Shown here piece by piece: positions 1 to 10,260 of a stretch of DNA of 10,260 nt. Below the pieces are notes generated by a model. It was not told the DNA's origin. It was given only the letters and a program-made list of their open reading frames with translations, and did not search any database. The stretch comes from a virus (Duplodnaviria > Heunggongvirae > Uroviricota > Caudoviricetes), in IMG/VR virus record IMGVR_UViG_2737471864_000005. One strand, given 5' to 3'. Both the position numbers and the translations under genes were made by a program. Numbering within the stretch: the stretch's first letter is position 1; every line of letters begins with the position of its first letter.

Positions 1-30
1 TAAGTTGGAGTCATTACCCTCAAAATTTAA

Positions 31-71
31 AAATAAATAAAAAAAGGCGAAGCGTGAATACACGCCACGCC
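31..71 (-). terminator. Putative intrinsic terminator after the capsid gene
   Basis: Hairpin 46-71 (GGCG/CGCC and GCGTG/CACGC stems, AATA loop) followed on the minus strand by a T-run (complement of A-rich 31-45), 18 nt after the capsid stop. Confidence 0.55.
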
Positions 72-89
72 TCTATTACACGTTAAATA

Positions 90-1118
90 TTATTTAACAG
101 TGATTTGAACGGAGAAGCCAACGCCGTGGTTTACAACCATCTGGCTATTCTCTGTAACAACGTTAACAGCATCCCCGCGAGCAGACTCGTAACTGTAGCT
201 ATACACCTCAGCAGGAGCGGCATTAATCAGTTCAAAGGTGCTGGAAGCAGCCCCGTAGATGTTCTGATATACGTTAGAGCCTTTAGCAAACTTCGGAACA
301 GCTACAGCGTCTGCGGTCATATGTGCAAGGTGTAGCGGATCAGTCACTTTGATCAGGTCAATGTTAGTTCCTGGAATGGTGAAAGTAGTTACACCTGGTA
401 GCAGGGAACGCACATTAAACACCACGTTGGCATCGTCTACAGGGCTTGCATATTGGAAAGCATTGACCATACCAACACTGTAACGAATAGCGTTGAATGC
501 CGCAGGCTTACAGAATACTACGATACGCTCTACAGCAGCCGCCTGGCTTTGTGCTTTCTCCATAATATCCGTAGCAAGCTGGTCAAATTGCTTGAAAACG
601 GTCATTGTGTCAGTGGCGGAGGCGTTCACAGTGGCTTTCATAGGTGTCACATTAAACAGCTTGCCCCATTCGATAAGAACATCATCAGTTTTAGGCGTGT
701 AAGTTTTACCGCTAAACAGAGATGCAGCCAACACGCTCTCTTTTGTACGCTGATACGCTACGTGGTGTTTAGCGATATATTCCGCATAGATATCAGTGAG
801 TGTTTCCTGAAAATCAGTGCCAGGTTTACGTTTGCCTTGAACATCAGAAGGTCTAATCACATCTTCACGAAGAAAATACGGGATTTCAATCAGCCATTCT
901 TTACCTTGTTCTCGCTTAGTAACATTGTGTTCAGAACTAAAACGGCTTGTCTCTTTGTTAAAGAGAGATTCGTTGCTTTCGACAAGCTGTGAAACAGCTA
1001 CTTTGTGAGATGTAACCCCTACAGAATCCGTAAAATCAAGAGTAGAAAGCAGATAGTTTCTAGTGCTATGCGCAGAGAACAGAGGAGCTAAATCAACGTA
1101 ATCATTACCTAGAATCAT
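90..1118 (-). CDS. Major capsid protein, lambda gpE-like family
   Basis: 342-aa ORF, close to lambda gpE length. By-eye matches to remembered lambda gpE: FTDSVGVTSHKVAVSQL vs FRESYPFTTEKVYLSQI, SGKTYT vs KGKYTM, C-terminal GFSVQIT vs FVSVQLA. AAGGA SD 10 nt upstream of ATG; 18-nt gap to upstream gene. Confidence 0.8.
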   Translation of the reverse strand: MILGNDYVDLAPLFSAHSTRNYLLSTLDFTDSVGVTSHKVAVSQLVESNESLFNKETSRFSSEHNVTKREQGKEWLIEIPYFLREDVIRPSDVQGKRKPGTDFQETLTDIYAEYIAKHHVAYQRTKESVLAASLFSGKTYTPKTDDVLIEWGKLFNVTPMKATVNASATDTMTVFKQFDQLATDIMEKAQSQAAAVERIVVFCKPAAFNAIRYSVGMVNAFQYASPVDDANVVFNVRSLLPGVTTFTIPGTNIDLIKVTDPLHLAHMTADAVAVPKFAKGSNVYQNIYGAASSTFELINAAPAEVYSYSYESARGDAVNVVTENSQMVVNHGVGFSVQITVK

Positions 1119-1136
1119 TTATTATTATTCCTTTTA

Positions 1137-1499
1137 TTAAGAAGTGAAAACAGAATGGAACCCTTCAAGCTGGAAGCCTTTTTTAATTAATGCTGTTTTT
1201 GCTGCTTCACTTACAGCATTCAGCGCATCAGCTTTGATGCAGACAAGGCCAGCATTGCTACGTAGCACATCTACAGGCTTGTTTTCTCCAGCCGTTACAA
1301 ATTCACTCATAACAACATAGATATCATCTCCTGATTCATATTTAGCGCCAGTGCTGGTGATCAAGTCGCCGCACTCAACATCAGCAGGAAGAGAAGCAAA
1401 AACCTTGCTTTCTACAGAGGCAAACGGATCAGTACAATAAGCCACCAGATCTGTAAAAGTCTTTCGACTTGGAAATAGAGCGTCTAAATCAATAATCAT
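1137..1499 (-). CDS. Putative head decoration protein (gpD-like by size and position)
   Basis: 120-aa ORF immediately upstream of the gpE-like gene, as D precedes E in lambda; strong AAGGAG SD. Sequence similarity to lambda gpD is weak by eye, so the function rests mainly on synteny and size. Confidence 0.5.
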   Translation of the reverse strand: MIIDLDALFPSRKTFTDLVAYCTDPFASVESKVFASLPADVECGDLITSTGAKYESGDDIYVVMSEFVTAGENKPVDVLRSNAGLVCIKADALNAVSEAAKTALIKKGFQLEGFHSVFTS

Positions 1500-1708
1500 T
1501 TAGTAATCTCCTTAGCTTTTAATTTGATTAATTCATTAAGGGAAGGTGTAGACGGAGAAGAAGGAGAAAAATATTTTTCAACACATCTTTCTACTTCCTC
1601 TACAGAACACCCAGCGTATTTAGCTACCATTTCGGTAATTTGTGGATTGATCTTTAGCATTTCATCGCGATACTTGATGATTTGCTCTTTATCATTTAAG
1701 AACAACAT
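1496..1708 (-). CDS. Hypothetical 70-aa protein, first gene of the capsid operon
   Basis: ORF whose TGA stop overlaps the ATG of the downstream gene (ATGA overlap at 1496-1499), suggesting translational coupling. No recognisable motif. Confidence 0.45.
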   Translation of the reverse strand: MLFLNDKEQIIKYRDEMLKINPQITEMVAKYAGCSVEEVERCVEKYFSPSSPSTPSLNELIKLKAKEITK

Positions 1709-1830
1709 TTATATAAACCTTGTTACCTTGTTTAAAGTAAGAAATACAACTTTTAAGTTGCATAACGGGCAAAATAAAAGGCAGCATTTAAAGCCGCCTT
1801 TTATTAACTTGTACCTATGTAATTACCCTA

Positions 1831-1862
1831 TGTTATGCATACTCCAAGATGTATGCATAACA
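1831..1862. promoter_or_regulatory. Perfect 12-bp inverted repeat, candidate operator upstream of the capsid operon
   Basis: TGTTATGCATAC (1831-1842), 8-nt spacer, GTATGCATAACA (1851-1862), exact reverse complements, about 130 bp upstream of the operon start codon at 1708. Confidence 0.5.
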
Positions 1863-1882
1863 AAGGAAAAAAGAGGTATAAT
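1854..1882 (+). promoter_or_regulatory. Possible plus-strand sigma70-like promoter overlapping the palindrome
   Basis: Exact TATAAT at 1877-1882 with a weak -35-like TGCATA about 17 bp upstream; would drive a short transcript toward the weak hairpin plus T-tract at 2041-2062. Confidence 0.25.
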
Positions 1883-2060
1883 GACACAGTATTTACTTAA
1901 GGAGGAGGAGAAGCGGGGAGCGGAGATTTTACTCCCCTTTAACGACAAGAAGAATTTTTAATATCGAACCAATAAAGGAAAAATAATCACCCCTATATAA
2001 TTATATTAACATACAATATATGAAATGCCAAGATATTTTACAACTTTTTTGTTGCTTTTT

Positions 2061-2399
2061 TTATTCTTCTGTGATAGCAGCGCCTAAGCGTTGTGCGAGT
2101 TCGATAAGGCCATCTCCCACATAGCGAACATCAGATTCAATATCTTCTATCCAGTTTGATAGCTCCCATATCTGATCCGCTGTTAGATATGCGTTCTCAC
2201 GCTTACAGAGCATCTCTACACGCTTAGAGAGGTGCTCAAAGGCATTCACAGCTAAATCCCAGTGTTTAAACGCCTCATTGAGTGCCGCTGGCGTGTTTTC
2301 TCTGTATGCTTCAAGTTCAGCGCGGTTTAAAGGCAGGAGGTAATCATCCTCATAATAATTAATTAGTGAGTAAATTGTGTCATACGTGTTTTTGTTCAT
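2061..2399 (-). CDS. Hypothetical acidic protein (112 aa from preferred start)
   Basis: ORF track gives 2061..2426; I prefer the ATG at 2399, which has a GGAG SD 9 nt upstream and sits just after the upstream gene stop (2401-2403). No recognisable domain. Confidence 0.5.
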   Translation of the reverse strand: MNKNTYDTIYSLINYYEDDYLLPLNRAELEAYRENTPAALNEAFKHWDLAVNAFEHLSKRVEMLCKRENAYLTADQIWELSNWIEDIESDVRYVGDGLIELAQRLGAAITEE

Positions 2400-2400
2400 A

Positions 2401-2811
2401 TTAAAAGTCTCCATAGTGATCAGCATTCTCTAAAATCTGGAAGTCTGGGACTAAGTTATTTAGGCCATTGGTGGCGAGATAACCGACGTAGTGGTTATAG
2501 TCTTCAAATCCTAAAATCTGGTATTTGCGCAAATCAGAGCTATCAACGATATACTCTTTTCTTTTTCTAGGTTTCCAGAATACGCCAGGTGTTGAAGATA
2601 AGATTTCTTGTAATGCGTTAAATTCATCTCCGCAAGGCACAGAGGGAGAATGTTCTATGATCTCTGTTTTCCATTCGCCAGGGGCGCTATTTTGCTTGGA
2701 GAGCGTAACTAGCTCTTTAAAGTCTTTACGTCTTAGAATAGATTTAGGTTTACTTAGAAGAGAAGCTGAATCACCGATTTTCTTAACAACGTTGTTTTTT
2801 CTTTTTGCCAT
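2401..2811 (-). CDS. Hypothetical protein with basic N-terminus (136 aa)
   Basis: ORF with AAGGA SD upstream; lysine/arginine-rich N-terminus (MAKRKNNVVKK). No recognisable domain. Confidence 0.55.
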   Translation of the reverse strand: MAKRKNNVVKKIGDSASLLSKPKSILRRKDFKELVTLSKQNSAPGEWKTEIIEHSPSVPCGDEFNALQEILSSTPGVFWKPRKRKEYIVDSSDLRKYQILGFEDYNHYVGYLATNGLNNLVPDFQILENADHYGDF

Positions 2812-2902
2812 TATTTACTTTTCCTTTTCTTTTAAAGGAAAACACCCCGAAGTATGTTTCTACGAGCATAAAAAACAACAACCACCACATAGCTATTACC
2901 AT
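2783..2902 (-). CDS. Candidate small hydrophobic peptide (39 aa), low confidence
   Basis: Hand translation of the 132-bp gap between the 92-aa and 136-aa genes: MVIAMWWLLFFMLVETYFGVFSFKRKGKVNNGKKKKQRC, hydrophobic N-terminus with basic tail, AAGGA 10 nt upstream. Overlaps the start of the 136-aa gene out of frame; could be a chance ORF in AT-rich DNA. Confidence 0.2.
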   Translation of the reverse strand: MVIAMWWLLFFMLVETYFGVFSFKRKGKVNNGKKKKQRC

Positions 2903-2943
2903 AATAATGTTTTCCTTTTATATTTTAATTACATAGAGAGATT

Positions 2944-3222
2944 TTAGAGAGTGGAATAGATGAAGTCTATTTCTCTGTCTAGTCTTTTGAGATTGAATGT
3001 AGAGAAAGATAATTCTTTAATCTCAATAACACCGAAGTTTGATAGCTGTTTCAGCCAGAATTTTAAACCATCTTCAGAGCACCCTGCTCGGTGTAACACA
3101 TCGCTATATTTTAGCGGTGTTGGCTTTCCTTTATAGAGGTAAGCAAGTGTTTCGTAGATGCGTTTTCCTGTGTCATTACACTGAATTCTGTCTACTTGAT
3201 TTTTTACTAAATATTGAATCAT
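2944..3222 (-). CDS. Hypothetical small protein, possibly DNA-binding (92 aa)
   Basis: ORF with strong AAGGAGG SD; 11-nt gap after the upstream gene. Possible helix-turn-helix-like segment, not verifiable by eye. Confidence 0.5.
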   Translation of the reverse strand: MIQYLVKNQVDRIQCNDTGKRIYETLAYLYKGKPTPLKYSDVLHRAGCSEDGLKFWLKQLSNFGVIEIKELSFSTFNLKRLDREIDFIYSTL

Positions 3223-3233
3223 AACCCTCCTTA

Positions 3234-3905
3234 TTAAAATGGAATATCAAAGTCTTCATATACTTTGGGATGTTTCTTAGCAAAATATGCCTCAATACCA
3301 TTTGGTAGCTTTAACCTGTGCTTATAGGCTAACGATGTTGCAAATTCTATAAATGATGCTCCTCCTGTTCTTTTGTGTTTCTCCTGGATGATAAGAGAGG
3401 AAAAATTCTCTAACACATCCTCCTCATTATCATTAGCTACCTTTTCACTTGATGAAACAGGTGTTTCTTCCGTCTCCCAGGGTAAAGGCGTATCCCAATC
3501 ATCATCAAGAACATCAAAAGAAGGCTGTTTATTATCTTCCGTAGGGGGAAGCTGATCAGGAACAGTTTTAACAGTAGCTTCTTGTTGTGTCTGGGCTTCT
3601 TGTTCATAAGGAAGGACAATATAAGCATTTGTGCTACCTGCCCTTTCCTCAATCTTCAACCATCCAAAAGAAACAAGATCTTTGATATGACGGCGTACCG
3701 TCTGATCTGTACCTACTCCTAACCGCTCACCAATACCTTTCAAAGATGGTGTTACCTTTTGGTATGTGCCAGATAAACTTAACAAATAAGAATAAATGAT
3801 CTTATGGTGTAGTTTTACTTCTTTTGTTTTGCCGTTAATCACCAGGGAAGTGATTGCTAGTAAGTCATAATCTATTCCTAAAAAAGGTTTTGTATGTTTA
3901 ATCAT
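3234..3905 (-). CDS. Winged-HTH DNA-binding protein with acidic linker; possible replication initiator or replisome organiser
   Basis: 223-aa ORF with AAGGAG SD. N-terminal region (KIIYSYLLSLSGTYQKVTPSLKGIGERLGVGTDQTVRRHIKDLVSFGWLKIEE) resembles wHTH domains of phage O / DnaD-type initiators; central acidic tract (DDDWDTPLPWETEE). Function is an architectural inference. Confidence 0.55.
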   Translation of the reverse strand: MIKHTKPFLGIDYDLLAITSLVINGKTKEVKLHHKIIYSYLLSLSGTYQKVTPSLKGIGERLGVGTDQTVRRHIKDLVSFGWLKIEERAGSTNAYIVLPYEQEAQTQQEATVKTVPDQLPPTEDNKQPSFDVLDDDWDTPLPWETEETPVSSSEKVANDNEEDVLENFSSLIIQEKHKRTGGASFIEFATSLAYKHRLKLPNGIEAYFAKKHPKVYEDFDIPF

Positions 3906-3959
3906 TAAAAAAGCTCCTTGATGTAATCACGCTCTACGGCGCTACTATGGTGATAAAAA

Positions 3960-4130
3960 TCACTTGCTTTTATTTGAGAGTGTTTCAGCCTCTCTTTTCA
4001 ACATATCAAGAATGTAATCTGTGACAGTGATACGTCTACTTCTGGCTTCTTTAAATAACACCTGAAATACTTCATCAGGAATATGAAAGCAAGTGCGTGG
4101 TTGTCTTTTCTTTTCTGTAGTTTCGCTCAT
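3960..4130 (-). CDS. Ribbon-helix-helix (CopG/Arc-type) DNA-binding protein (56 aa from preferred start)
   Basis: ORF track gives 3960..4175; the in-frame ATG at 4130 has a strong AAGGAG SD 6 nt upstream and avoids overlap with the upstream gene. PRTCFHIPDEVFQVLFKEARSRRITVTDYILDMLKRE fits a beta-strand plus two-helix RHH pattern. Confidence 0.55.
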   Translation of the reverse strand: MSETTEKKRQPRTCFHIPDEVFQVLFKEARSRRITVTDYILDMLKREAETLSNKSK

Positions 4131-4149
4131 AGTTTTCTCCTTCTTTTCT

Positions 4150-4338
4150 TTACTCTGTTTCAGATTCTTTTTCATTTTTTCTTAGTTCATCAATAATCTT
4201 GAGTGCTTCATTGAAGCAAGCTGCTCGCTCTGGATAACCTCGACTCCTTGCCATATTACGATTCATTACTACTTGATGGCGAGATAACTCACCTTTTTTA
4301 AATGCCGAGACGACGTGTTCCGGTGTAAACCATTTCAT
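4150..4338 (-). CDS. Hypothetical 62-aa protein, first gene of the regulatory operon
   Basis: ORF with AAGGAG SD 6 nt upstream, directly downstream of the predicted promoter and leader hairpin. Confidence 0.5.
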   Translation of the reverse strand: MKWFTPEHVVSAFKKGELSRHQVVMNRNMARSRGYPERAACFNEALKIIDELRKNEKESETE

Positions 4339-4355
4339 AAAAAACTCCTTATTCA

Positions 4356-4394
4356 GTTAAAAGAAAAAACACCTTGCAAGCCTGACGGCTTCAA
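4356..4394 (-). terminator. Leader hairpin plus U-tract, possible attenuator
   Basis: Stem AAGCC/GGCTT with TGAC loop (4378-4391), extended by TTG/CAA with a 1-nt bulge; on the minus strand followed by GGTGTTTTTTCTTTT. Lies between the predicted promoter and the first RBS. Confidence 0.4.
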
Positions 4395-4444
4395 AGTGCA
4401 TTGATTTTGATTATTTAGAGAAGAATGTTTTCTGTCCCTCTAAT

Positions 4445-4477
4445 ACCTATTATTACATATAAAGAAACATTTGTCAA
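4445..4477 (-). promoter_or_regulatory. Putative sigma70 promoter for the 4338-to-2061 operon
   Basis: Minus strand reads TTGACA (plus 4472-4477), 17-nt spacer, AATAAT; about 100 nt upstream of the first start codon. Confidence 0.4.
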
Positions 4478-5009
4478 TACCTTTTCACAAAAAATCTGAT
4501 CTTTTTCATGCACTTACATTTTTTCTTAGCTATTCGTGCTCTTCTGTGTAGTGCTATTCTTCATTATCCGCTAAAACGCTCTAAAACGCGTTCTAACGAG
4601 ATTTTGATAAAAGCAATACATTCCCTTATGTAATGGCTGTTTAGCTCGCCAGAGGCTTATTTAAGGGGCTTATTTTGTATTTGTTAGGTATATGAAAAGG
4701 TGATTGTAGATATAAGATAGAGAGTCACTTTATAAAACGCTCTGTAAAGCCCTGTAGTGAGTTTATATATGTAGACAATGCGTTTCCATTCCCTACCCTG
4801 CTTAATGCTGTTAGAGAAGCATTTAGACCCCTTATTTTTAATTAATTAAAGTATCCTCTATACACTCCTGTTATGAAACACCTCTGAATCCTTCATAAAA
4901 CACATTATGACGCAAAGAACACTTTTCTAAGGTGATTCCCTTCCTGAATGCTGTTTCTTGCGTCAGAGAGCTACAGAGAGCTTATAAAGCTATTATTAAT
5001 AATAAAGTA

Positions 5010-5062
5010 GATAAGTAAGATAAGTAAGTAAGATAACTAAGATAGATAAGATTAATAAGATC
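5010..5062. repeat. Tandem degenerate 9-mer array (GATAAGTAA-like, 5 units)
   Basis: GATAAGTAA, GATAAGTAA, (GTAA), GATAACTAA, GATAGATAA, GATTAATAA, GATC read directly from the sequence. Confidence 0.6.
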
Positions 5063-5105
5063 AGAATTCTCTTTCGGTGTCGCCTCTGGCTTTTCCACCG
5101 AAAAC

Positions 5106-5260
5106 AATTACACGACTACAGAATGTAGAAGTGGAATTGTATTGAGGCTTAGTGAAATTACACGAGGAAAGCAGAGTGTAATTGAGCTTTAGCCACTCTC
5201 TCTTCGAGTAATTACACAACTACAGAGAATAACAGAGTTATTAAGTGTAGGAGGGTAATT
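5106..5260. repeat. Cluster of AATTACAC motifs with nested short inverted repeats
   Basis: AATTACAC at about 5106, 5157 and 5210; AATTACAC-N12-GTGTAATT inverted pair (5157-5183); CTACA-N-TGTAG dyads at 5115-5127 and 5219-5250; AATAAC-AGA-GTTATT at 5228-5242. Confidence 0.55.
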
Positions 5261-5323
5261 AAGAGGTAGAGAGATAGAGTTAACACGTAAGCAATCTGTA
5301 GATTGGTTAGGTGATTACTCTTA

Positions 5324-5495
5324 CTGCGCACAGCGCAATAGTATTTCTTCGTGGGCGTTATCGCCAACGAAGTTACACGAAGAAAGTAACGCTTTGCTTT
5401 CGGTGTGAGCGGAACGGGCCAGCCAACGTAGCCCGAAAGGTAGCGGAGTAAGGCTGCTTGCCAGAGAGTGAAGCTAACGCCGGAAGGCAAAAAGA
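5324..5495. other. GC-rich island of consecutive stem-loops (candidate structured RNA or DNA site)
   Basis: TGCGC-ACA-GCGCA (5325-5337); CTTCGT-G-GGCG-TTAT-CGCC-A-ACGAAG (5347-5372); GTTAC-N9-GTAAC (5372-5390); CGGGC-N11-GCCCG (about 5414-5434). Markedly more GC-rich than its flanks. The only ORF here (5212..5499 minus) is low-complexity and likely spurious. Confidence 0.35.
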
Positions 5496-5498
5496 TCA

Positions 5499-5675
5499 TA
5501 TATATATAGATATAAAGAATATTATTTAATTATTATTTAATTATTCTTATTAACTTATTCTTATCGGGTATCAGTTTTGATAGGGGTAGGGGTATCAGAC
5601 TTGATAGGGGTAGTCATATCAAAGTTAATAGGGGTATCAATATTGATAGGGGTAACAGAATTCTGTGGGGGTAGC
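5499..5675. promoter_or_regulatory. Candidate replication origin: AT-rich unwinding tract plus five palindromic iterons
   Basis: Near-pure AT tract 5499-5562, then TGATAGGGGTA-type units starting at about 5578, 5602, 5626, 5644 and 5664 (spacing 24, 24, 18, 20 bp). Units form TGATA-GGGG-TATCA dyads, consistent with a dimeric binding protein. Confidence 0.5.
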
Positions 5676-5716
5676 TCACAGTGACCTACCGTTACTACCA
5701 ATCATCACATAGCACT

Positions 5717-6200
5717 CTGTGTAATGTCTTTCTATGTGCGTGCCATAATCCCCCTATATTCCCTGTGTAAATCATAGAATAATGCTCTCTATTCCCTGTG
5801 TAATTCCATACTAAAAAATCCAATGAAAAGTAGCTTAAAAGTGCAATTCTTACTTTCTTCACTTTTACATCACTTTCGCAAATCCTTGTGTAGTGCGGCT
5901 TACAGAGCACCATCAGAAATTGTTGGCTAAAAATTGTTCTGCTTGTTTCTTAATGAGTTTTCTTGTTTGTGCAAATTTTAAAATTTATTTTGTTTTTATA
6001 GCCTTATTTCGTGTAATGCGTGGCATAGCAAGCCCTTTTCTTGTGTTGTCAAGACATTTGGCAACGTTCAAACATCTGTTTAGAAATGCCAAATTGTTGA
6101 TCTAACAAATAAACCTGTATAAACAGAACACCATTTAATCTATCCCCCTGTGTATCCATTAGGCATACCAAATGAATACATCTAAATCGTGTAATATTCC
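5717..6200. repeat. Dispersed GTGTAAT / CTGTGTAA motifs (reverse orientation of the 5106-5260 cluster)
   Basis: CTGTGTAAT-like motifs at about 5717, 5765, 5800, 5885, 6010, 6148 and 6188, including ATTCCCTGTGTAA twice (5758-5812). Confidence 0.5.
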
Positions 6201-6285
6201 GTACCTATAAGGCTTGAAACAGACCAAATGAATACGATATACTCATTTGCATTGAAGTAGTGCCAAATCGATACATTAAGAGGAT
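6160..6285. promoter_or_regulatory. Candidate res site (three resolvase-binding subsites) upstream of the recombinase
   Basis: ACCAAATGAATAC at 6167-6180 and 6223-6235; the latter pairs with ATACTCATTTG (6239-6249) as an imperfect dyad; third related copy CCAAATCGATAC at 6263-6274. Ends just before the recombinase start. Confidence 0.4.
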
Positions 6286-6288
6286 TTT

Positions 6289-6828
6289 ATGAGCAATATC
6301 GGTTATAAGCGTGTGAGCACTGTAGATCAGAACACTGATCGCCAGCTTGCAGGAGTAACGCTTGATAAAGTCTTTGAAGATAAGCTGTCAGGTAAAGACA
6401 CTAACCGTCCAGGATTGCAGGCGTGTTTATCCTATCTGAGAGAAGGCGACACCTTACACGTCCACTCTCTTGATCGTTTAGGGCGTAACACCTTAGACAT
6501 TCTGGAGTTAATCAAACAATTGAATGATCGAGGTGTAATTGTTCGCTTTCACAAAGAAGGAATCATTGCTGACATTACAAGCGCGATGGGAAAGATGATG
6601 CTTACGATGTTGTCGGCAGTTGCAACGTGTGAACGTGAACTGATGTTAGAGCGTAAACGAGAAGCGCAAGCCGTCAATCCTACAAAGCGTGGTAAAGGGA
6701 AGGCAGTAGATAGGGAAGGTATAAAGAAAGCCCTTTCCGCTGGAGTGTCAGTGCGTAAAACCGCCGAGAGCTTTAATGTTGCTCCTTCAACGGTGCAACG
6801 TATCAAGAAGGAAGAAGAGGAGGCGTAA
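6289..6828 (+). CDS. Small serine recombinase, resolvase/invertase family
   Basis: 179 aa. N-terminal GYKRVSTVDQ with catalytic-serine context, DRLGRN, GKMMLTMLSAVATCERELMLER helix, and C-terminal HTH-like tail resembling gamma-delta/Tn3 resolvase. GAGGA SD 4 nt upstream. Confidence 0.85.
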   Translation: MSNIGYKRVSTVDQNTDRQLAGVTLDKVFEDKLSGKDTNRPGLQACLSYLREGDTLHVHSLDRLGRNTLDILELIKQLNDRGVIVRFHKEGIIADITSAMGKMMLTMLSAVATCERELMLERKREAQAVNPTKRGKGKAVDREGIKKALSAGVSVRKTAESFNVAPSTVQRIKKEEEEA

Positions 6829-6836
6829 TGCCTCCT
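6818..6836 (+). terminator. Hairpin overlapping the recombinase stop codon
   Basis: AGGAGGC-GTAAT-GCCTCCT perfect 7-bp stem (6818-6836); downstream T-tract is weak, so terminator function is uncertain. A second hairpin TCTGGA-TTT-TCCAGA lies at 6851-6865. Confidence 0.3.
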
Positions 6837-7155
6837 TGATATTTGGGGATTCTGGATTTTCCAGATCGGGGGGCGCTGATCTTCGCGTTAAACATTGATC
6901 ACGTTTGCGCCGATTTCAGATAAAAAGGCAGCTATTAAGCAATACGTAACTTTTACAATTAGTGAAATTATCTAAAACACAAGTTATATAGATGAGAAAA
7001 TGAAATATTATCTTGAACAAATCAAACAAAACAACACATCATCTTGTTGACACCATGCAAAGTGAATAGTAAGCTATTATATGTGAAAATTTGCACATTG
7101 CATGCAATAAAAAATAAATGATACCTTGTTGTTGTTAAATCAATAGGGGGTATCT

Positions 7156-7314
7156 ATGCGCTTTATCTTATCCATTTTAAAAACCTGCAGAACCACAATT
7201 ACTTTAGCTGTAATTGTTACCATCATATACCTCATCTATTTTACCCCTCGAGATAAAATCGATTCACTAGCGATCATCGTTCATGCAATGGCTACATTAA
7301 CTAAAAAACTTTAA
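7156..7314 (+). CDS. Candidate small membrane peptide (52 aa)
   Basis: Hand translation: MRFILSILKTCRTTITLAVIVTIIYLIYFTPRDKIDSLAIIVHAMATLTKKL. AGGGGG SD 5 nt upstream of ATG. One predicted transmembrane helix. Not in the ORF track, presumably because it is under the length cutoff. Confidence 0.4.
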   Translation: MRFILSILKTCRTTITLAVIVTIIYLIYFTPRDKIDSLAIIVHAMATLTKKL

Positions 7315-7327
7315 TAATTTCACTATC

Positions 7328-7371
7328 AGGCGCACAAACACATCTTTGATTGCTGGATGTGTTATGCGCCT
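7328..7371. other. Long imperfect inverted repeat between two convergent small genes
   Basis: AGGCGCACAAACACATC (7328-7344), 11-nt loop, GATGTGTTATGCGCCT (7356-7371). No clear U-tract on either strand, so it may be a binding site or RNA structure rather than a canonical terminator. Confidence 0.4.
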
Positions 7372-7380
7372 ACTGGTGAT

Positions 7381-7533
7381 TCAATCCTTAAGCCATTTCA
7401 ACTCACTAAGGAGTTTTCTTTCTTCGTTCTCTCGCTGTTTACGCTCTAGCCAGGCTTTTCCCTCTGGCGTAGACAGGAACTTACGAGCGTGAATCTTGCG
7501 GTTATTACGTTTTATAGCTGCAATGTTTTTCAT
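7381..7533 (-). CDS. Candidate small basic protein (50 aa)
   Basis: Hand translation: MKNIAAIKRNNRKIHARKFLSTPEGKAWLERKQRENEERKLLSELKWLKD. AGAGG SD about 7 nt upstream. Highly basic, likely helical. Confidence 0.4.
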   Translation of the reverse strand: MKNIAAIKRNNRKIHARKFLSTPEGKAWLERKQRENEERKLLSELKWLKD

Positions 7534-8355
7534 CGTGTTGCCTCTGTATTCATATGAAAATTAACAAGTTACATACTACACAGGGAGACTACGCATAAAA
7601 CACAATACAAGTAAAGATACATTTTCAAGACAATAGGAGCCATAAAGCGCCTTTGATGGTTATACCAAAAAATAAGCGCCGTAGGCGTATCCACTAAAAG
7701 GGCTTTTTCACAAAAGCTATGAAGTCTTAGCAGTTCTTCTCTTATCAGGCACCCGTTGTACTCCGGTGGACGAAACCGTGCTAGAGCTTGATTCTTTCCC
7801 GATCAAGTTAGGTTTTGAAGAGGTGGGCTTTAATCCACTATTGCACTTAAAACTCTTCCCATCATTTAGCCTGTTTATCCTCTGCAACGTCTCACGACGT
7901 GTGGCATCATTGGACACCGCGCCAGGTGTGGAACATCTTGCTAAGAGTTTTGGTAGAAGGTTTAGAGACGGTGGCACGTCTTCCAGCTTCAAAGGAACTT
8001 GTTACGAGGTTGAGCCTGGGAACTACTCGCCCATACGTGTTACACTACCAAAGCCCATAACAACGTATAGGCGTTTGTAAGTGATAACAGAAGATACAAT
8101 TTCTTAGAGAAGTTAAGCTAAGTTATTGATTTTCTTAATGGTGCGATAATAGGAACAATACACATAGGCGATAAGCTTTGTTTTTGTTGCCTTTTTTATT
8201 GTTCATTTTTTATAGATACCCCCAAAAGTACCCCCATATCTTTTTCCGCCCCTGAAATTTGGTTGTTATTCATACAGCATATCAGGCGGTAACGCTCTCC
8301 CTTTAACCCACTTATTGTATGATAGTGCTATCCCACAATAAGGAATCAGCCAGCC

Positions 8356-8715
8356 ATGAGAATGACCAGTCGCAAAAAAGAGATACTTAGCTACTTTGAA
8401 CCGGATAACCTCGAATGGGTGACTGGTGAGATTGGTGCGCCGCCGTTCGATGTGTCGGGTGTGGCCTACCTGCTTCATGGCATGGTGTCGTTCGATAAGC
8501 GTCACCAGCTCGAATCAACCCGGCACACACTGGAAAGCATGGTTGCTGGTGGACTGCTTGAGCGGGTGACAGTGTATGAATCGCGCCAGATACGGCGCGG
8601 CGGTGATACTAACGCAACGGTCGTGCGCTACGGTTTACCCGGTCAGTGCGCTGTTATGCGCGATACTGGCGGCGCTGACAACGCAATATCAGGTGAATAC
8701 ATGCGGGTCAGTTAA
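8356..8715 (+). CDS. Hypothetical protein (119 aa), enterobacterial-type composition
   Basis: ORF with GC-rich codon usage unlike the AT-rich region to its left; weak AGGA SD. Its 3-prime end overlaps the convergent gene by 8 nt. No family recognised. Confidence 0.5.
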   Translation: MRMTSRKKEILSYFEPDNLEWVTGEIGAPPFDVSGVAYLLHGMVSFDKRHQLESTRHTLESMVAGGLLERVTVYESRQIRRGGDTNATVVRYGLPGQCAVMRDTGGADNAISGEYMRVS

Positions 8716-9250
8716 TAGCCTGCAATCTGTCGTTGATGCGGCTCAGGTCGTAAACCCGGCGTTCAATATCCAGCATCAGGAAATTGTGGATCTCGGCCTG
8801 CTCAGGATTATCAGACTCTCTGGCCTGTAATAGCAATTCATTGTAACCATGCAAGCCGCCTGAGTTTTCCGCCGGGGTGGTGCCTTTCCCACGCAGGCAG
8901 CTAATGGGCTGATTACTCGTATCGTGTGTTTGCTTCTCCAGCACAATGACGCAATCCCACCAGTCGCCAAAGTCATACGTGTAAACCAGCTTGTCACCCT
9001 CATTCTGGAGCGCCGCCCATAGTGGCGTGATTGCCGCGTTACCCATGCTTTCATCCTCACCCCATACGCGATACTCGCTACCTGGATCACCTTTACGCCC
9101 TTTCTCGAACATATACAGGTGTTCGTCATTCCAGCCAAAAGCTAACTGGATCACGGCATGAAGTTTACTAAAGGGGATTTGCTCTGGAACCAGCACACGC
9201 CGCCATATAGGTGGTTTGCTGTCTCGGATGGTTATCTTTAGCTGGTACAT
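8708..9250 (-). CDS. pRiA4b ORF-3-like family protein
   Basis: 180 aa. N-terminal MYQLKITIRDSKPPIWRRVLVP and FGW...YDFGDWW motifs match my memory of the plasmid pRiA4b ORF-3 domain family; assignment is by recall only. Confidence 0.65.
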   Translation of the reverse strand: MYQLKITIRDSKPPIWRRVLVPEQIPFSKLHAVIQLAFGWNDEHLYMFEKGRKGDPGSEYRVWGEDESMGNAAITPLWAALQNEGDKLVYTYDFGDWWDCVIVLEKQTHDTSNQPISCLRGKGTTPAENSGGLHGYNELLLQARESDNPEQAEIHNFLMLDIERRVYDLSRINDRLQAIN

Positions 9251-9370
9251 GCAAATCCTGAATAAATGCGAATCGGAAGGATAACGATACTGACGTACTC
9301 ACAATTCTGTAAAGGTGAATAAAGGAAATTTGCTTAATACGCATAAGTTACATGTGGAATAATCCCATAT

Positions 9371-9556
9371 CTACCTGCGCGGCGCTGGCTTCTTCCACTG
9401 GTAGGCAGGTGCTCGCATCATTTCGCGGAACCTGTCGCGCCGGGCTATATCGGCATTAACTGATCGTTCTATCTCCCGTTGATCTGCCTGTGTAAGCTGG
9501 TGGCCTCCGTGCTCAAGTTTGGCGATGGTCAATAAGGCTATTTCGCGTGGTATCAT
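9371..9556 (-). CDS. Hypothetical small protein (61 aa)
   Basis: ORF with GAGGG SD about 8 nt upstream; charged helical protein, no family recognised. Confidence 0.4.
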   Translation of the reverse strand: MIPREIALLTIAKLEHGGHQLTQADQREIERSVNADIARRDRFREMMRAPAYQWKKPAPRR

Positions 9557-9740
9557 ACGTCATACCCTCTGGAAGGATGAAACACGCCCGGATTAAATTT
9601 CATTTTTCGCGGGTATAAAAAAACGATGGGGCGGGCAGTCCCGGATAGTCAGGGCTGTAGAGATTTGACTACCCCCTCCCCACTGGATTCAGGTTACTGC
9701 TATTCCGTTAAGCGCTGCTTACGGGGATAGCTGCGTTGTG

Positions 9741-9766
9741 ATTTTGACCATTCAGGTCGCCGCTAT
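9741..9766 (-). other. Lambda cosN-like decamer within a repeat-containing non-coding gap
   Basis: Plus 9754-9763 AGGTCGCCGC is the reverse complement of GCGGCGACCT, matching 10 of 12 nt of the lambda cohesive-end sequence GGGCGGCGACCT. Nearby direct repeats of ATTCAGGT and GATTT(T)GAC. Could be chance. Confidence 0.2.
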
Positions 9767-9853
9767 TTCCTCACCGATTGGGTGCTACGCGCGCGCGTAC
9801 TTGTCCCGAAATACCAGAAACCGCCAGCCAGAGGATGATTTCCCTCTGGTGGT

Positions 9854-10135
9854 CTACCTTTGCCTCTTGCCGCCATTTAACCGGAAGGCGTTACCGTTCG
9901 GTTGCGCTATCCCCATGCGGTGTTGCGTTTCGGTAACAGCTTTATGCAGGTCGCCAAATTCCTCAACCTTCACGGGCGGGCGCTTCACGTTCTCCAGACA
10001 CGTTTCACGGCGGCGCTTTATCCATTCCCGATCATCGTCCTCAGTGCATAACAGCATGACTTCCATCCATCGTGCGGCAGCTCTCCGGTATAGCCCTTTT
10101 GACTCCAGCTCTTCAGCTTTCCTGTCCCTTATCAT
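9854..10135 (-). CDS. PerC-family transcriptional regulator-like protein
   Basis: 93 aa. N-terminal pattern AEELESKGLYRRAAARWMEVM...REWIKRRRETCL matches the conserved PerC/Pch N-terminal motif as I recall it. GAGAGG SD 5 nt upstream. Confidence 0.65.
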   Translation of the reverse strand: MIRDRKAEELESKGLYRRAAARWMEVMLLCTEDDDREWIKRRRETCLENVKRPPVKVEEFGDLHKAVTETQHRMGIAQPNGNAFRLNGGKRQR

Positions 10136-10171
10136 TTCTGCCTCTCAGATTATATAGATAAGCAAAAAGGT

Positions 10172-10250
10172 GTTGGTTCAGTTGGTTCAGTTGGTTCAAT
10201 TTGTAAAGATCGTTGTTTTTATTGTGTTTTTTCTGAAATGTTGAACCAAC
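10172..10250. repeat. Three perfect tandem 9-mers GTTGGTTCA plus one inverted copy
   Basis: GTTGGTTCA at 10172-10180, 10181-10189 and 10190-10198; reverse complement TGAACCAAC at 10242-10250. Located upstream of the perC-like gene. Confidence 0.6.
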
Positions 10251-10260
10251 ATCAACTCAT

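Follow-up and report, generated by a model that had tools for sequence, protein, structure and literature searches.

A six-gene operon of a satellite-like Escherichia coli island with a proposed iteron-binding initiator whose DNA-binding domains recur in lytic phages

To our knowledge, an arms race between a satellite and a lytic phage is known in molecular detail so far only for PLE and ICP1 of Vibrio cholerae. PLE has an initiator, RepA, and an iteron origin, and it is countered by the ICP1 protein Odn. In Odn, the N-terminus is a copy of the RepA DNA-binding domain, and a T5orf172 domain makes an iteron-dependent cut in the PLE origin (PMC8263062). Other described systems that invite comparison are the lambda O, DnaD-like, and HTH_36 initiators and the P4, PICI, and cfPICI satellites. 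Here, we analyzed a window of 10,260 nucleotides of viral DNA (Caudoviricetes; IMG/VR record IMGVR_UViG_2737471864_000005), focusing on six consecutive minus-strand genes, g1 to g6; all coordinates without a locus name are window positions. Positions 13-8154 are 100% identical to part of an E. coli island of ~12.3 kb that lies at a tRNA-Thr gene (thrW) and is bounded by the tRNA-Thr and a tyrosine integrase. We propose, with a probability of roughly 0.6, that g1 to g6 form the early operon for regulation and replication in a satellite-like island of about 12 kb, and that g3 is an iteron-binding replication initiator which would work much like PLE RepA. The genes, whose proteins are measured in amino acids (aa), are as follows.

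4338..4150, minus strand: g1, 62 aa, basic, first gene past the leader; an island-specific orphan
4130..3960, minus strand: g2, 56 aa, within a 71-aa open reading frame (ORF) starting at 4175; probable ribbon-helix-helix (RHH) DNA-binding protein
3905..3234, minus strand: g3, 223 aa; proposed iteron-binding replication initiator
3222..2944, minus strand: g4, 92 aa; stand-alone winged-helix protein
2811..2401, minus strand: g5, 136 aa, with a basic N-terminus; the most conserved orphan in the operon
2399..2061, minus strand: g6, 112 aa, within a 121-aa ORF; acidic helical orphan at the operon's variable end

The initial annotation of this stretch had described six short genes of these sizes behind a promoter, and both our ORF calls and the NCBI annotation of the 100% identical E. 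coli LZHX12 chromosome, which gives the same six genes at the same lengths, agree with it. It had also reported strong Shine-Dalgarno sequences and tight spacing. AAGGAG-type sites do precede g1 to g4, with weaker sites at g5 and g6; gaps of 19, 54, 11, 132, and 1 nt make the spacing tight except for the 132 nt between g4 and g5. This sole long gap (2812-2943) holds promoter-like hexamers at 2928..2901, and an internal promoter or processing site is possible within it.

The g3 protein has three parts.

3905..3606, minus strand: residues 1-100, winged-helix DNA-binding domain (winged helix at residues 9-100 in the AlphaFold2 model)
3605..3429, minus strand: residues 101-159, disordered acidic linker with AlphaFold2 confidence (pLDDT) below 40
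3428..3252, minus strand: residues 160-218, helical C-terminal domain with four helices in the AlphaFold2 model

The protein matched Pfam HTH_36 at 31.9 bits (cutoff 25; 1e-7), and all of its PHROG matches were to replication proteins described as replication-initiator, O-like, or DnaD-like (4e-12 to 2e-8). These matches support the earlier suggestion that the 223-aa protein resembles the N-terminus of an O/DnaD-type initiator. MarR-family PDB chains were matched as well (4e-4). Structural matches to the model, which was built from an 18-sequence alignment, include RepA_N initiators and the N-terminal domain of PLE RepA. As modeled, the fold is compatible with an initiator and no proof of one. 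Pfam RepA_N (PF06970) gave no match to g3 at E values up to 1, and therefore we do not file g3 as a RepA_N member, only as a protein that may work like one. With the lambda O, DnaD-like, and HTH_36 initiators it shares an N-terminal HTH_36-type winged helix and iterons beside an A+T-rich stretch; it differs in its unrelated C-terminal domain and in the absence from the island of a gene for a P-like or DnaC-like loader, and the matches concern mainly the winged helix.

The proposed origin lies in the non-coding region 1.65 kb upstream of g3.

5563..5672: type A iteron array, about 5 copies of TGATAGGGGTATCA at 18- or 24-bp spacing; proposed replication origin
5498..5557: A+T stretch, 60 nt, 93% A+T, abutting the iterons; candidate DNA-unwinding element
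5654 and 5670-5690: past the A array, one B-type site and one C-type palindrome

Across islands, the g3 DNA-binding domain occurs as at least five alleles, A to E, the others being 15-27% identical to allele A, and each has its own iteron. The iterons of all five alleles are semi-palindromic.

Allele A iteron: TGATAGGGGTATCA
Allele B iteron: AACAGAATTCTGTGGGGGT
Allele C iteron: TCACAGTGACCTACC
Allele D iteron: CCTAGGAAATGAGTTCCTACCT
Allele E iteron: GTAACGATNNGTTACAT

Domain and iteron type are paired. A cognate array of at least three sites was present in 24 of the 27 loci with an intact origin region and non-cognate arrays in 9 of 96 combinations, counts that are not independent because the compared loci are mutually related. 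For all five allele types, an A+T stretch (60 nt, 82-93% A+T) lies 0-32 bp from the cognate array, and retained non-cognate arrays lie ~140-150 bp from it. A-type iterons are also kept by a distant island whose domain shares only 74% identity with allele A. The initial annotation had speculated that the 223-aa protein acts at iterons 1.6 kb away, and this allele-by-allele correspondence in sequence argues for such a link. The one D-allele island that we examined with an intact origin region has adjacent A and D arrays, with the D array beside the A+T stretch. In islands with allele D or C (L010:6200-6492 and L013:5943-6340), an A-type array is retained beside the cognate one; arrays seem to build up in the origin region when alleles are swapped.

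The other half of g3 varies too: its C-terminal domain comes in at least four types, and the two halves reassort. One g3 allele carries the database label "LexA family," which we rejected, as there is no peptidase domain and the protein is allele B joined to C-terminal type II.

A short motif ends g3. The C-terminus of the window's g3 is DFDIPF, and that of SSB, the E. coli protein that binds single-stranded DNA, is DDDIPF, a motif on which numerous proteins of replication and repair dock (PMC5872125). The fetched loci hold 1017 distinct ORFs; those ending in [IL]PF number 22, every one of them a g3 orthologue, with tips DFDIPF, DFDLPF, YDSIPF, and QSTIPF. The tip recurs across four C-terminal domain types, three of them mutually unrelated and the fourth 30% identical to type I. 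As in SSB, the extreme C-terminus consists of acidic residues and then I/L-P-F, preceded by a flexible region, here the disordered acidic linker. Unlike SSB, g3 is not an OB-fold protein that binds single-stranded DNA, and its tip sits on a small helical domain. The island contains no helicase, primase, or polymerase of its own, and we infer for that reason that the tip recruits replication proteins to the origin, the weakest step of our argument. We know of no initiator, from a limited literature search, for which recruitment by an SSB-like tip has been described. We also considered mimicry of a phage SSB, which was unsupported: no ORF of the phage muut ends in an acidic IPF tip.

The DNA-binding domains recur in phages. 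Four lytic Stephanstirmvirinae phages encode proteins (muut_154, inny_184, QNJ49226, and an ORF of BI-EHEC) with two tandem island-type DNA-binding domains and a C-terminal MUG113/T5orf172 domain of the GIY-YIG clan. Their domain contents are listed here with identities to the island alleles.

muut chimera: A (100% over 101 aa; 99% over residues 1-123) and D (95.5%)
Mt1B1_P17 chimera: B (95.6%) and D (88.5%)
BI-EHEC chimera: B (95.6%) and D (93%)
inny chimera: E (92.6%) and D (95.5%)

In every chimera the junction follows the shared linker ...QLPPTE, and muut DNA is 96% identical to window positions 3537-3965. In muut_154 we found two HTH_36 domains (3.6e-15), MUG113, and T5orf172 (E 0.03). 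In muut and inny, a g2 homologue lies immediately upstream of the chimeric gene. The muut genome (146 kb) contains no A-to-E iteron arrays, and its protein has the two specificities that correspond to the A and D arrays of the D-allele island. Judged by sequence, the chimeras have the architecture of Odn, namely copies of initiator domains fused to a T5orf172/GIY-YIG-type domain. They differ from Odn in carrying two tandem domains at 89-100% identity, against one at 42%.

The islands are widespread. Of 5426 complete E. coli genomes, 1094 carry at least part of the operon and 272 carry at least 80% of it; islands are present in 1094-1642 of the 5426, roughly a fifth to a third. A genome scan with g1 patterns, which were too specific, found only 4 loci, and a g5 search extended the reach to Klebsiella and Enterobacter. 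Islands in Klebsiella, Enterobacter, Raoultella, and Leclercia have the same gene order; in those of Klebsiella and Enterobacter, protein identities to the window genes are 34-35% for g1, 29-40% for g4, 54-55% for g5, 27-37% for g6, and 56% for the capsid gene. Homologues of g1, g4, g5, and g6 in the same order at 27-55% identity indicate that these genes are real. Lack of conservation in related elements would have spoken against the operon as originally described, and it is instead kept across related islands.

In the Klebsiella and Enterobacter islands, the g3 slot is filled by a 482-485-aa SF2-helicase-like protein (L023:8155-9603 and L025:8138-9595). It has Walker A and DExx motifs, sub-threshold matches to DEAD and ResIII (E 1.6e-5), and a C-terminal resolvase-type helix-turn-helix. 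Islands of this type have A+T-rich TTAATTAAT-type repeats, or no repeats, in place of iterons. The slot thus behaves as an exchangeable replication module, and the whole module has been exchanged in these islands.

The remaining operon proteins are small. The initial annotation had counted at least two DNA-binding members by architecture, with an RHH and a winged-helix protein among them; g4 is a second winged-helix protein besides g3. Sequence profiles identify g4 as a stand-alone winged-helix paralogue of the g3 DNA-binding domain: its family aligned to the g3 domain family with an hhalign probability of 91% (E 1.1e-6, 62 columns), and g4 had no direct Pfam or significant PDB match. The corresponding island proteins of Enterobacter and Klebsiella are 40% and 29% identical to it. 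The g4 sequence is constant across g3 alleles, and therefore g4 probably binds a constant site. The 56-aa g2 had been called RHH. Its sequence pattern is RHH-like, and it matched PHROG 582, an Arc-like repressor, at E 0.0017 in the 71-aa form and 0.011-0.017 in the 56-aa forms; there was no Pfam match and no significant match to PDB sequences, so the call is weakly supported.

The other three proteins match no family, as the initial annotation had said. For g1, the Pfam, PHROGs, NCBIfam, and PADLOC scans gave none, and its family comprises 88 proteins, all from Escherichia, Klebsiella, Raoultella, or Leclercia. For g5 there are 387 homologues, with identities of about 55% in Klebsiella, Enterobacter, Raoultella, and Leclercia. 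A profile search matched 40 cluster representatives among 1.84 billion, none annotated, and the AlphaFold2 model (pLDDT 57, pTM 0.25) gave no usable fold, nor was there a PDB sequence match. The g6 protein, also without a family in Pfam, PHROG, NCBIfam, and PADLOC, is 37% identical to the Enterobacter island protein and 27% identical to the Klebsiella one; in other E. coli variants, different small helical proteins take its position. By their sequence distribution, g1, g5, and g6 are restricted to the island family and conserved across genera. The initial annotation had suggested that the proteins without a family could include helper-interference or anti-defense functions. PADLOC matched no operon protein to a defense system, and the NCBIfam scan of the operon proteins returned only noise.

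Upstream of g1 are several conserved non-coding features.

4480..4660: non-coding block upstream of the early promoter, highly conserved, with 83-99% identity in all island variants
4571-4579 and 4581-4589: two CTAAAACGC repeats around the palindrome AACGCGTT, inside the block
4477..4449, minus strand: early promoter, TTGACA-17-(TG)AATAAT
4339..4443, minus strand: 5' leader, about 105 nt, with two hairpins
4399..4369, minus strand: second leader hairpin, 13-bp stem, followed by a U-tract (U6CU4) at 4368..4358

The promoter, already noted as consensus-like, scores 11/12 and is the top match in the window. The window as a whole holds 22 promoter-like matches versus 24.9 in shuffles, with no excess, and the case for the early promoter therefore rests on conservation: its -35 hexamer is invariant across nine island variants, in which the entire leader is conserved as well. 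The leader folds at -25.2 kcal/mol (z = -2.06). Its second hairpin and T-run, which the initial annotation had missed between promoter and g1, are kept in all nine island variants compared. In one of them (L008), a single A-T pair is deleted from both arms, a compensatory change that preserves the stem. From its sequence, the hairpin looks like an intrinsic terminator or attenuator; a consensus terminator scan did not flag it. Rfam, at E values up to 1, gave no match in the operon or the 2-kb non-coding region, its single match in the window being a sub-threshold L20-leader at 33-158, and a tRNA scan of the window found no tRNA genes. Across island variants, the genes are less conserved than the ~180-230 bp that precede the early promoter, and this holds even in variants whose g1 and g2 are only 46-63% identical. 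The block at 4480..4660 is a candidate operator or other cis element.

Gene order is common to all island variants: integrase, Dit-like gene, 610-aa tape-measure-like gene, a gene for a ~65-aa protein, major capsid, two small genes, the six-gene operon, 1.4-2 kb of non-coding DNA, and a small serine recombinase. Relatives of the island occupy other tRNA genes and other sites, with the integrase intact each time. The window includes part of the late genes.

90..1708, minus strand: first part of the late operon, 352 nt past g6
1708..1496, minus strand: 70-aa gene
1499..1137, minus strand: 120-aa gene
1118..90, minus strand: major capsid gene
2031..2003: promoter-like site upstream of the late operon

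The capsid protein matched Pfam Phage_cap_E at 1e-15, in agreement with the annotation of L001, a locus holding the same island. Against the phage capsid proteins of the compared collection, this private protein of the island reaches only 23% identity. The tape-measure-like protein matched a PHROG at E 3e-48 and the Dit-like protein a Pfam family at 3.5e-29. The latter is 60-61% identical to the "tail tube initiator" of Justusliebigvirus phages (60% to muut_230), and the former is 30-51% identical to muut_231, the product of the adjacent phage gene. Their genes lie at L001:3196-5775, beyond the window, with phage counterparts at muut 137962-140770.

We saw no portal, terminase, or lysis genes in the island. 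It thus combines an integrase and a replication module, homologues of helper virion genes, and an incomplete set of virion genes, as a satellite does; its own capsid, tape-measure-like, and Dit-like genes without portal or terminase are unusual for one. Helpers would be Stephanstirmvirinae myophages (Justusliebigvirus and Phapecoctavirus). The IMG/VR matches are prophage-style calls from isolate genomes and are uninformative on packaging.

With the P4, PICI, and cfPICI satellites, the island shares its tRNA association, a size of ~10-15 kb, an integrase, an early operon, and genes through which assembly of the helper virion is manipulated. None of their hallmarks (AlpA, Pri-Rep, a portal/protease/small terminase module, alpha primase-helicase, Sid, Psu, or Delta) was found in Pfam, PHROG, and NCBIfam scans that covered the window proteins and three other late-gene proteins; the integrase has integrase-type Pfam domains only. 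Whereas cfPICIs have a full head module, this island has a capsid protein and tail-related genes only, and its presumed helpers are large lytic myophages instead of temperate phages. From PLE it is set apart by having no detectable sequence homology, by the SSB-like tip of g3, by encoding capsid, tape-measure-like, and Dit-like proteins, and by using a tyrosine integrase and a small serine recombinase instead of a large serine recombinase. The island does not fit any of the P4, PICI, cfPICI, and PLE families. Our literature search found no paper on the island, its protein accessions, or a link between Justusliebigvirus or Phapecoctavirus and satellites, which is no proof that these are unpublished.

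Several observations weigh against the proposed replication operon. The pairing is not exclusive, since A arrays persist in C- and D-allele islands, a B-allele island (L003) holds a single B site, and the compared loci are not independent of one another. No DnaA box lies near the iterons; the scan gave one match with 1 mismatch, inside g1, fewer than expected by chance. The evidence for an RHH fold in g2 is weak, and the putative nuclease domain of the chimeras is a borderline Pfam match (MUG113, 22.5 bits versus a cutoff of 22.3). Generic regulators also score about as well as initiators against the g3 fold. In an alternative that we regard as unlikely, g3 is a transcription factor, a master repressor or activator, and the arrays are operators for the divergent serine recombinase or for the early or late operons. 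Its winged helix matches MarR, LexA, and Crp regulators as well as it does initiators, NCBI names g3 "transcriptional regulator" or "LexA family," and the arrays sit in a long intergenic region between divergent genes. However, the early promoter is over 1 kb away from the arrays and the start of the recombinase some 600 bp, and a stretch of 93% A+T directly adjoins them; the PHROG matches of g3 are all to replication proteins. A helicase-like protein fills its slot in sister islands, the conserved SSB-like tip has no obvious role in a repressor, and the "LexA family" name has no peptidase domain behind it.

The remaining alternatives concern the island and the phages. The island could be a decaying prophage remnant and the operon a functionless leftover, with the phage similarity reflecting old ancestry or one-way capture by phages. 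The missing portal, terminase, and lysis genes would fit decay, as would insertion sequence elements that interrupt some copies and the loss of the serine recombinase from some. We nevertheless find it highly improbable, given that intact ORFs stand in the same order in 272 E. coli genomes and, at 27-55% protein identity, in other genera, that the non-coding elements are conserved, and that several different tRNA sites are occupied with an intact integrase. In addition, the 89-100% identity between phage and island domains and the 96% identity of the muut DNA point to recent exchange. We likewise give little credence to the idea that the chimeras are ordinary homing endonucleases or phage replication proteins from which the islands borrowed domains, with no bearing on the island origin. 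The nuclease domain does resemble putative homing endonucleases of T5-like and jumbo phages, and domain D, shared by all four phages, may be ancestral in the phage gene. On the other hand, A-to-E arrays are absent from the 146 kb of muut, which leaves these domains without a cognate array in that phage. The first domain varies among phages, each time matching another island allele and joined in the shared linker, and the only D-allele island examined with an intact origin region has its D array beside the A+T stretch.

If the six genes do form an early regulatory and replication operon, it might work as follows. A strong sigma-70 promoter would start transcription, which would first meet the conserved terminator-like hairpin; the operon would thus probably be kept low until read-through is allowed. 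The probable RHH protein g2 and the small winged-helix protein g4 would be probable DNA-binding regulators. The N-terminal winged helix of g3 would recognize allele-specific iterons adjoining the A+T-rich unwinding stretch, and its C-terminal domain and DFDIPF tip would recruit replication proteins. The sequences themselves show the gene structure, the winged-helix folds, the correspondence between domain allele and iteron type, the conserved tip, the persistence of the operon across genera, and the phage chimeras with their g3 DNA-binding domains; DNA binding, replication, induction, and helper dependence are inferred from these.

We also put forward a broader and more tentative proposal, to which we give somewhat less than even odds. 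The islands would be an undescribed satellite family of E. coli and its relatives that parasitizes large lytic Stephanstirmvirinae in an arms race like that of PLE and ICP1. Satellites would swap matched sets of domain and iterons, phages would stack domain copies, two per protein, on an origin-cutting GIY-YIG nuclease, and the SSB-like tip of the initiator would recruit host partners of SSB such as PriA, DnaG, or chi. If true, such an arms race would not be peculiar to Vibrio but would have a convergent counterpart in E. coli, Klebsiella, and Enterobacter whose helpers can be grown easily: muut, inny, and Mt1B1_P17 infect laboratory E. coli strains. The islands would offer at least five DNA-binding domains matched with their iterons as a natural library, the tandem-domain nucleases a model for the evolution of sequence-specific anti-parasite weapons, and the SSB-tip mimic a testable mechanism for an initiator without helicase or primase. 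The islands may also affect the host range of Stephanstirmvirinae phages considered for therapy.

Some features of the surrounding DNA were noted in addition. The motif YGTGTAAW occurs 10 times in the whole window versus 1.7 expected, with 8 copies at 5107-6195 whose strand is minus on the left side of the iterons and plus on the right side; g4, g2, the serine recombinase, or a packaging protein may bind these sites. At 5285-5495 on the plus strand, a G+C-rich stretch of ~200 nt has a multi-branched fold (-74 kcal/mol, z = -2.7). It is 91-97% conserved in islands with a long intergenic region and absent from the short variant. An RNA gene at this position was not established, with no compensatory changes in 8 homologues and no Rfam match. 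The small serine recombinase (6289-6828, plus strand, 179 aa, resolvase/invertase type) is divergent from the operon and additional to the tyrosine integrase. It is missing from some E. coli islands, and in Klebsiella and Enterobacter relatives a 192-205-aa tyrosine recombinase replaces it. Within 8140-10260, the island ends at about 8154, at a fragment of the tRNA-Thr 3' end, and what follows belongs to a different element, with a pRiA4b ORF-3 family protein and a PerC-family regulator, and the thrW site therefore carries tandem elements in the source genome.

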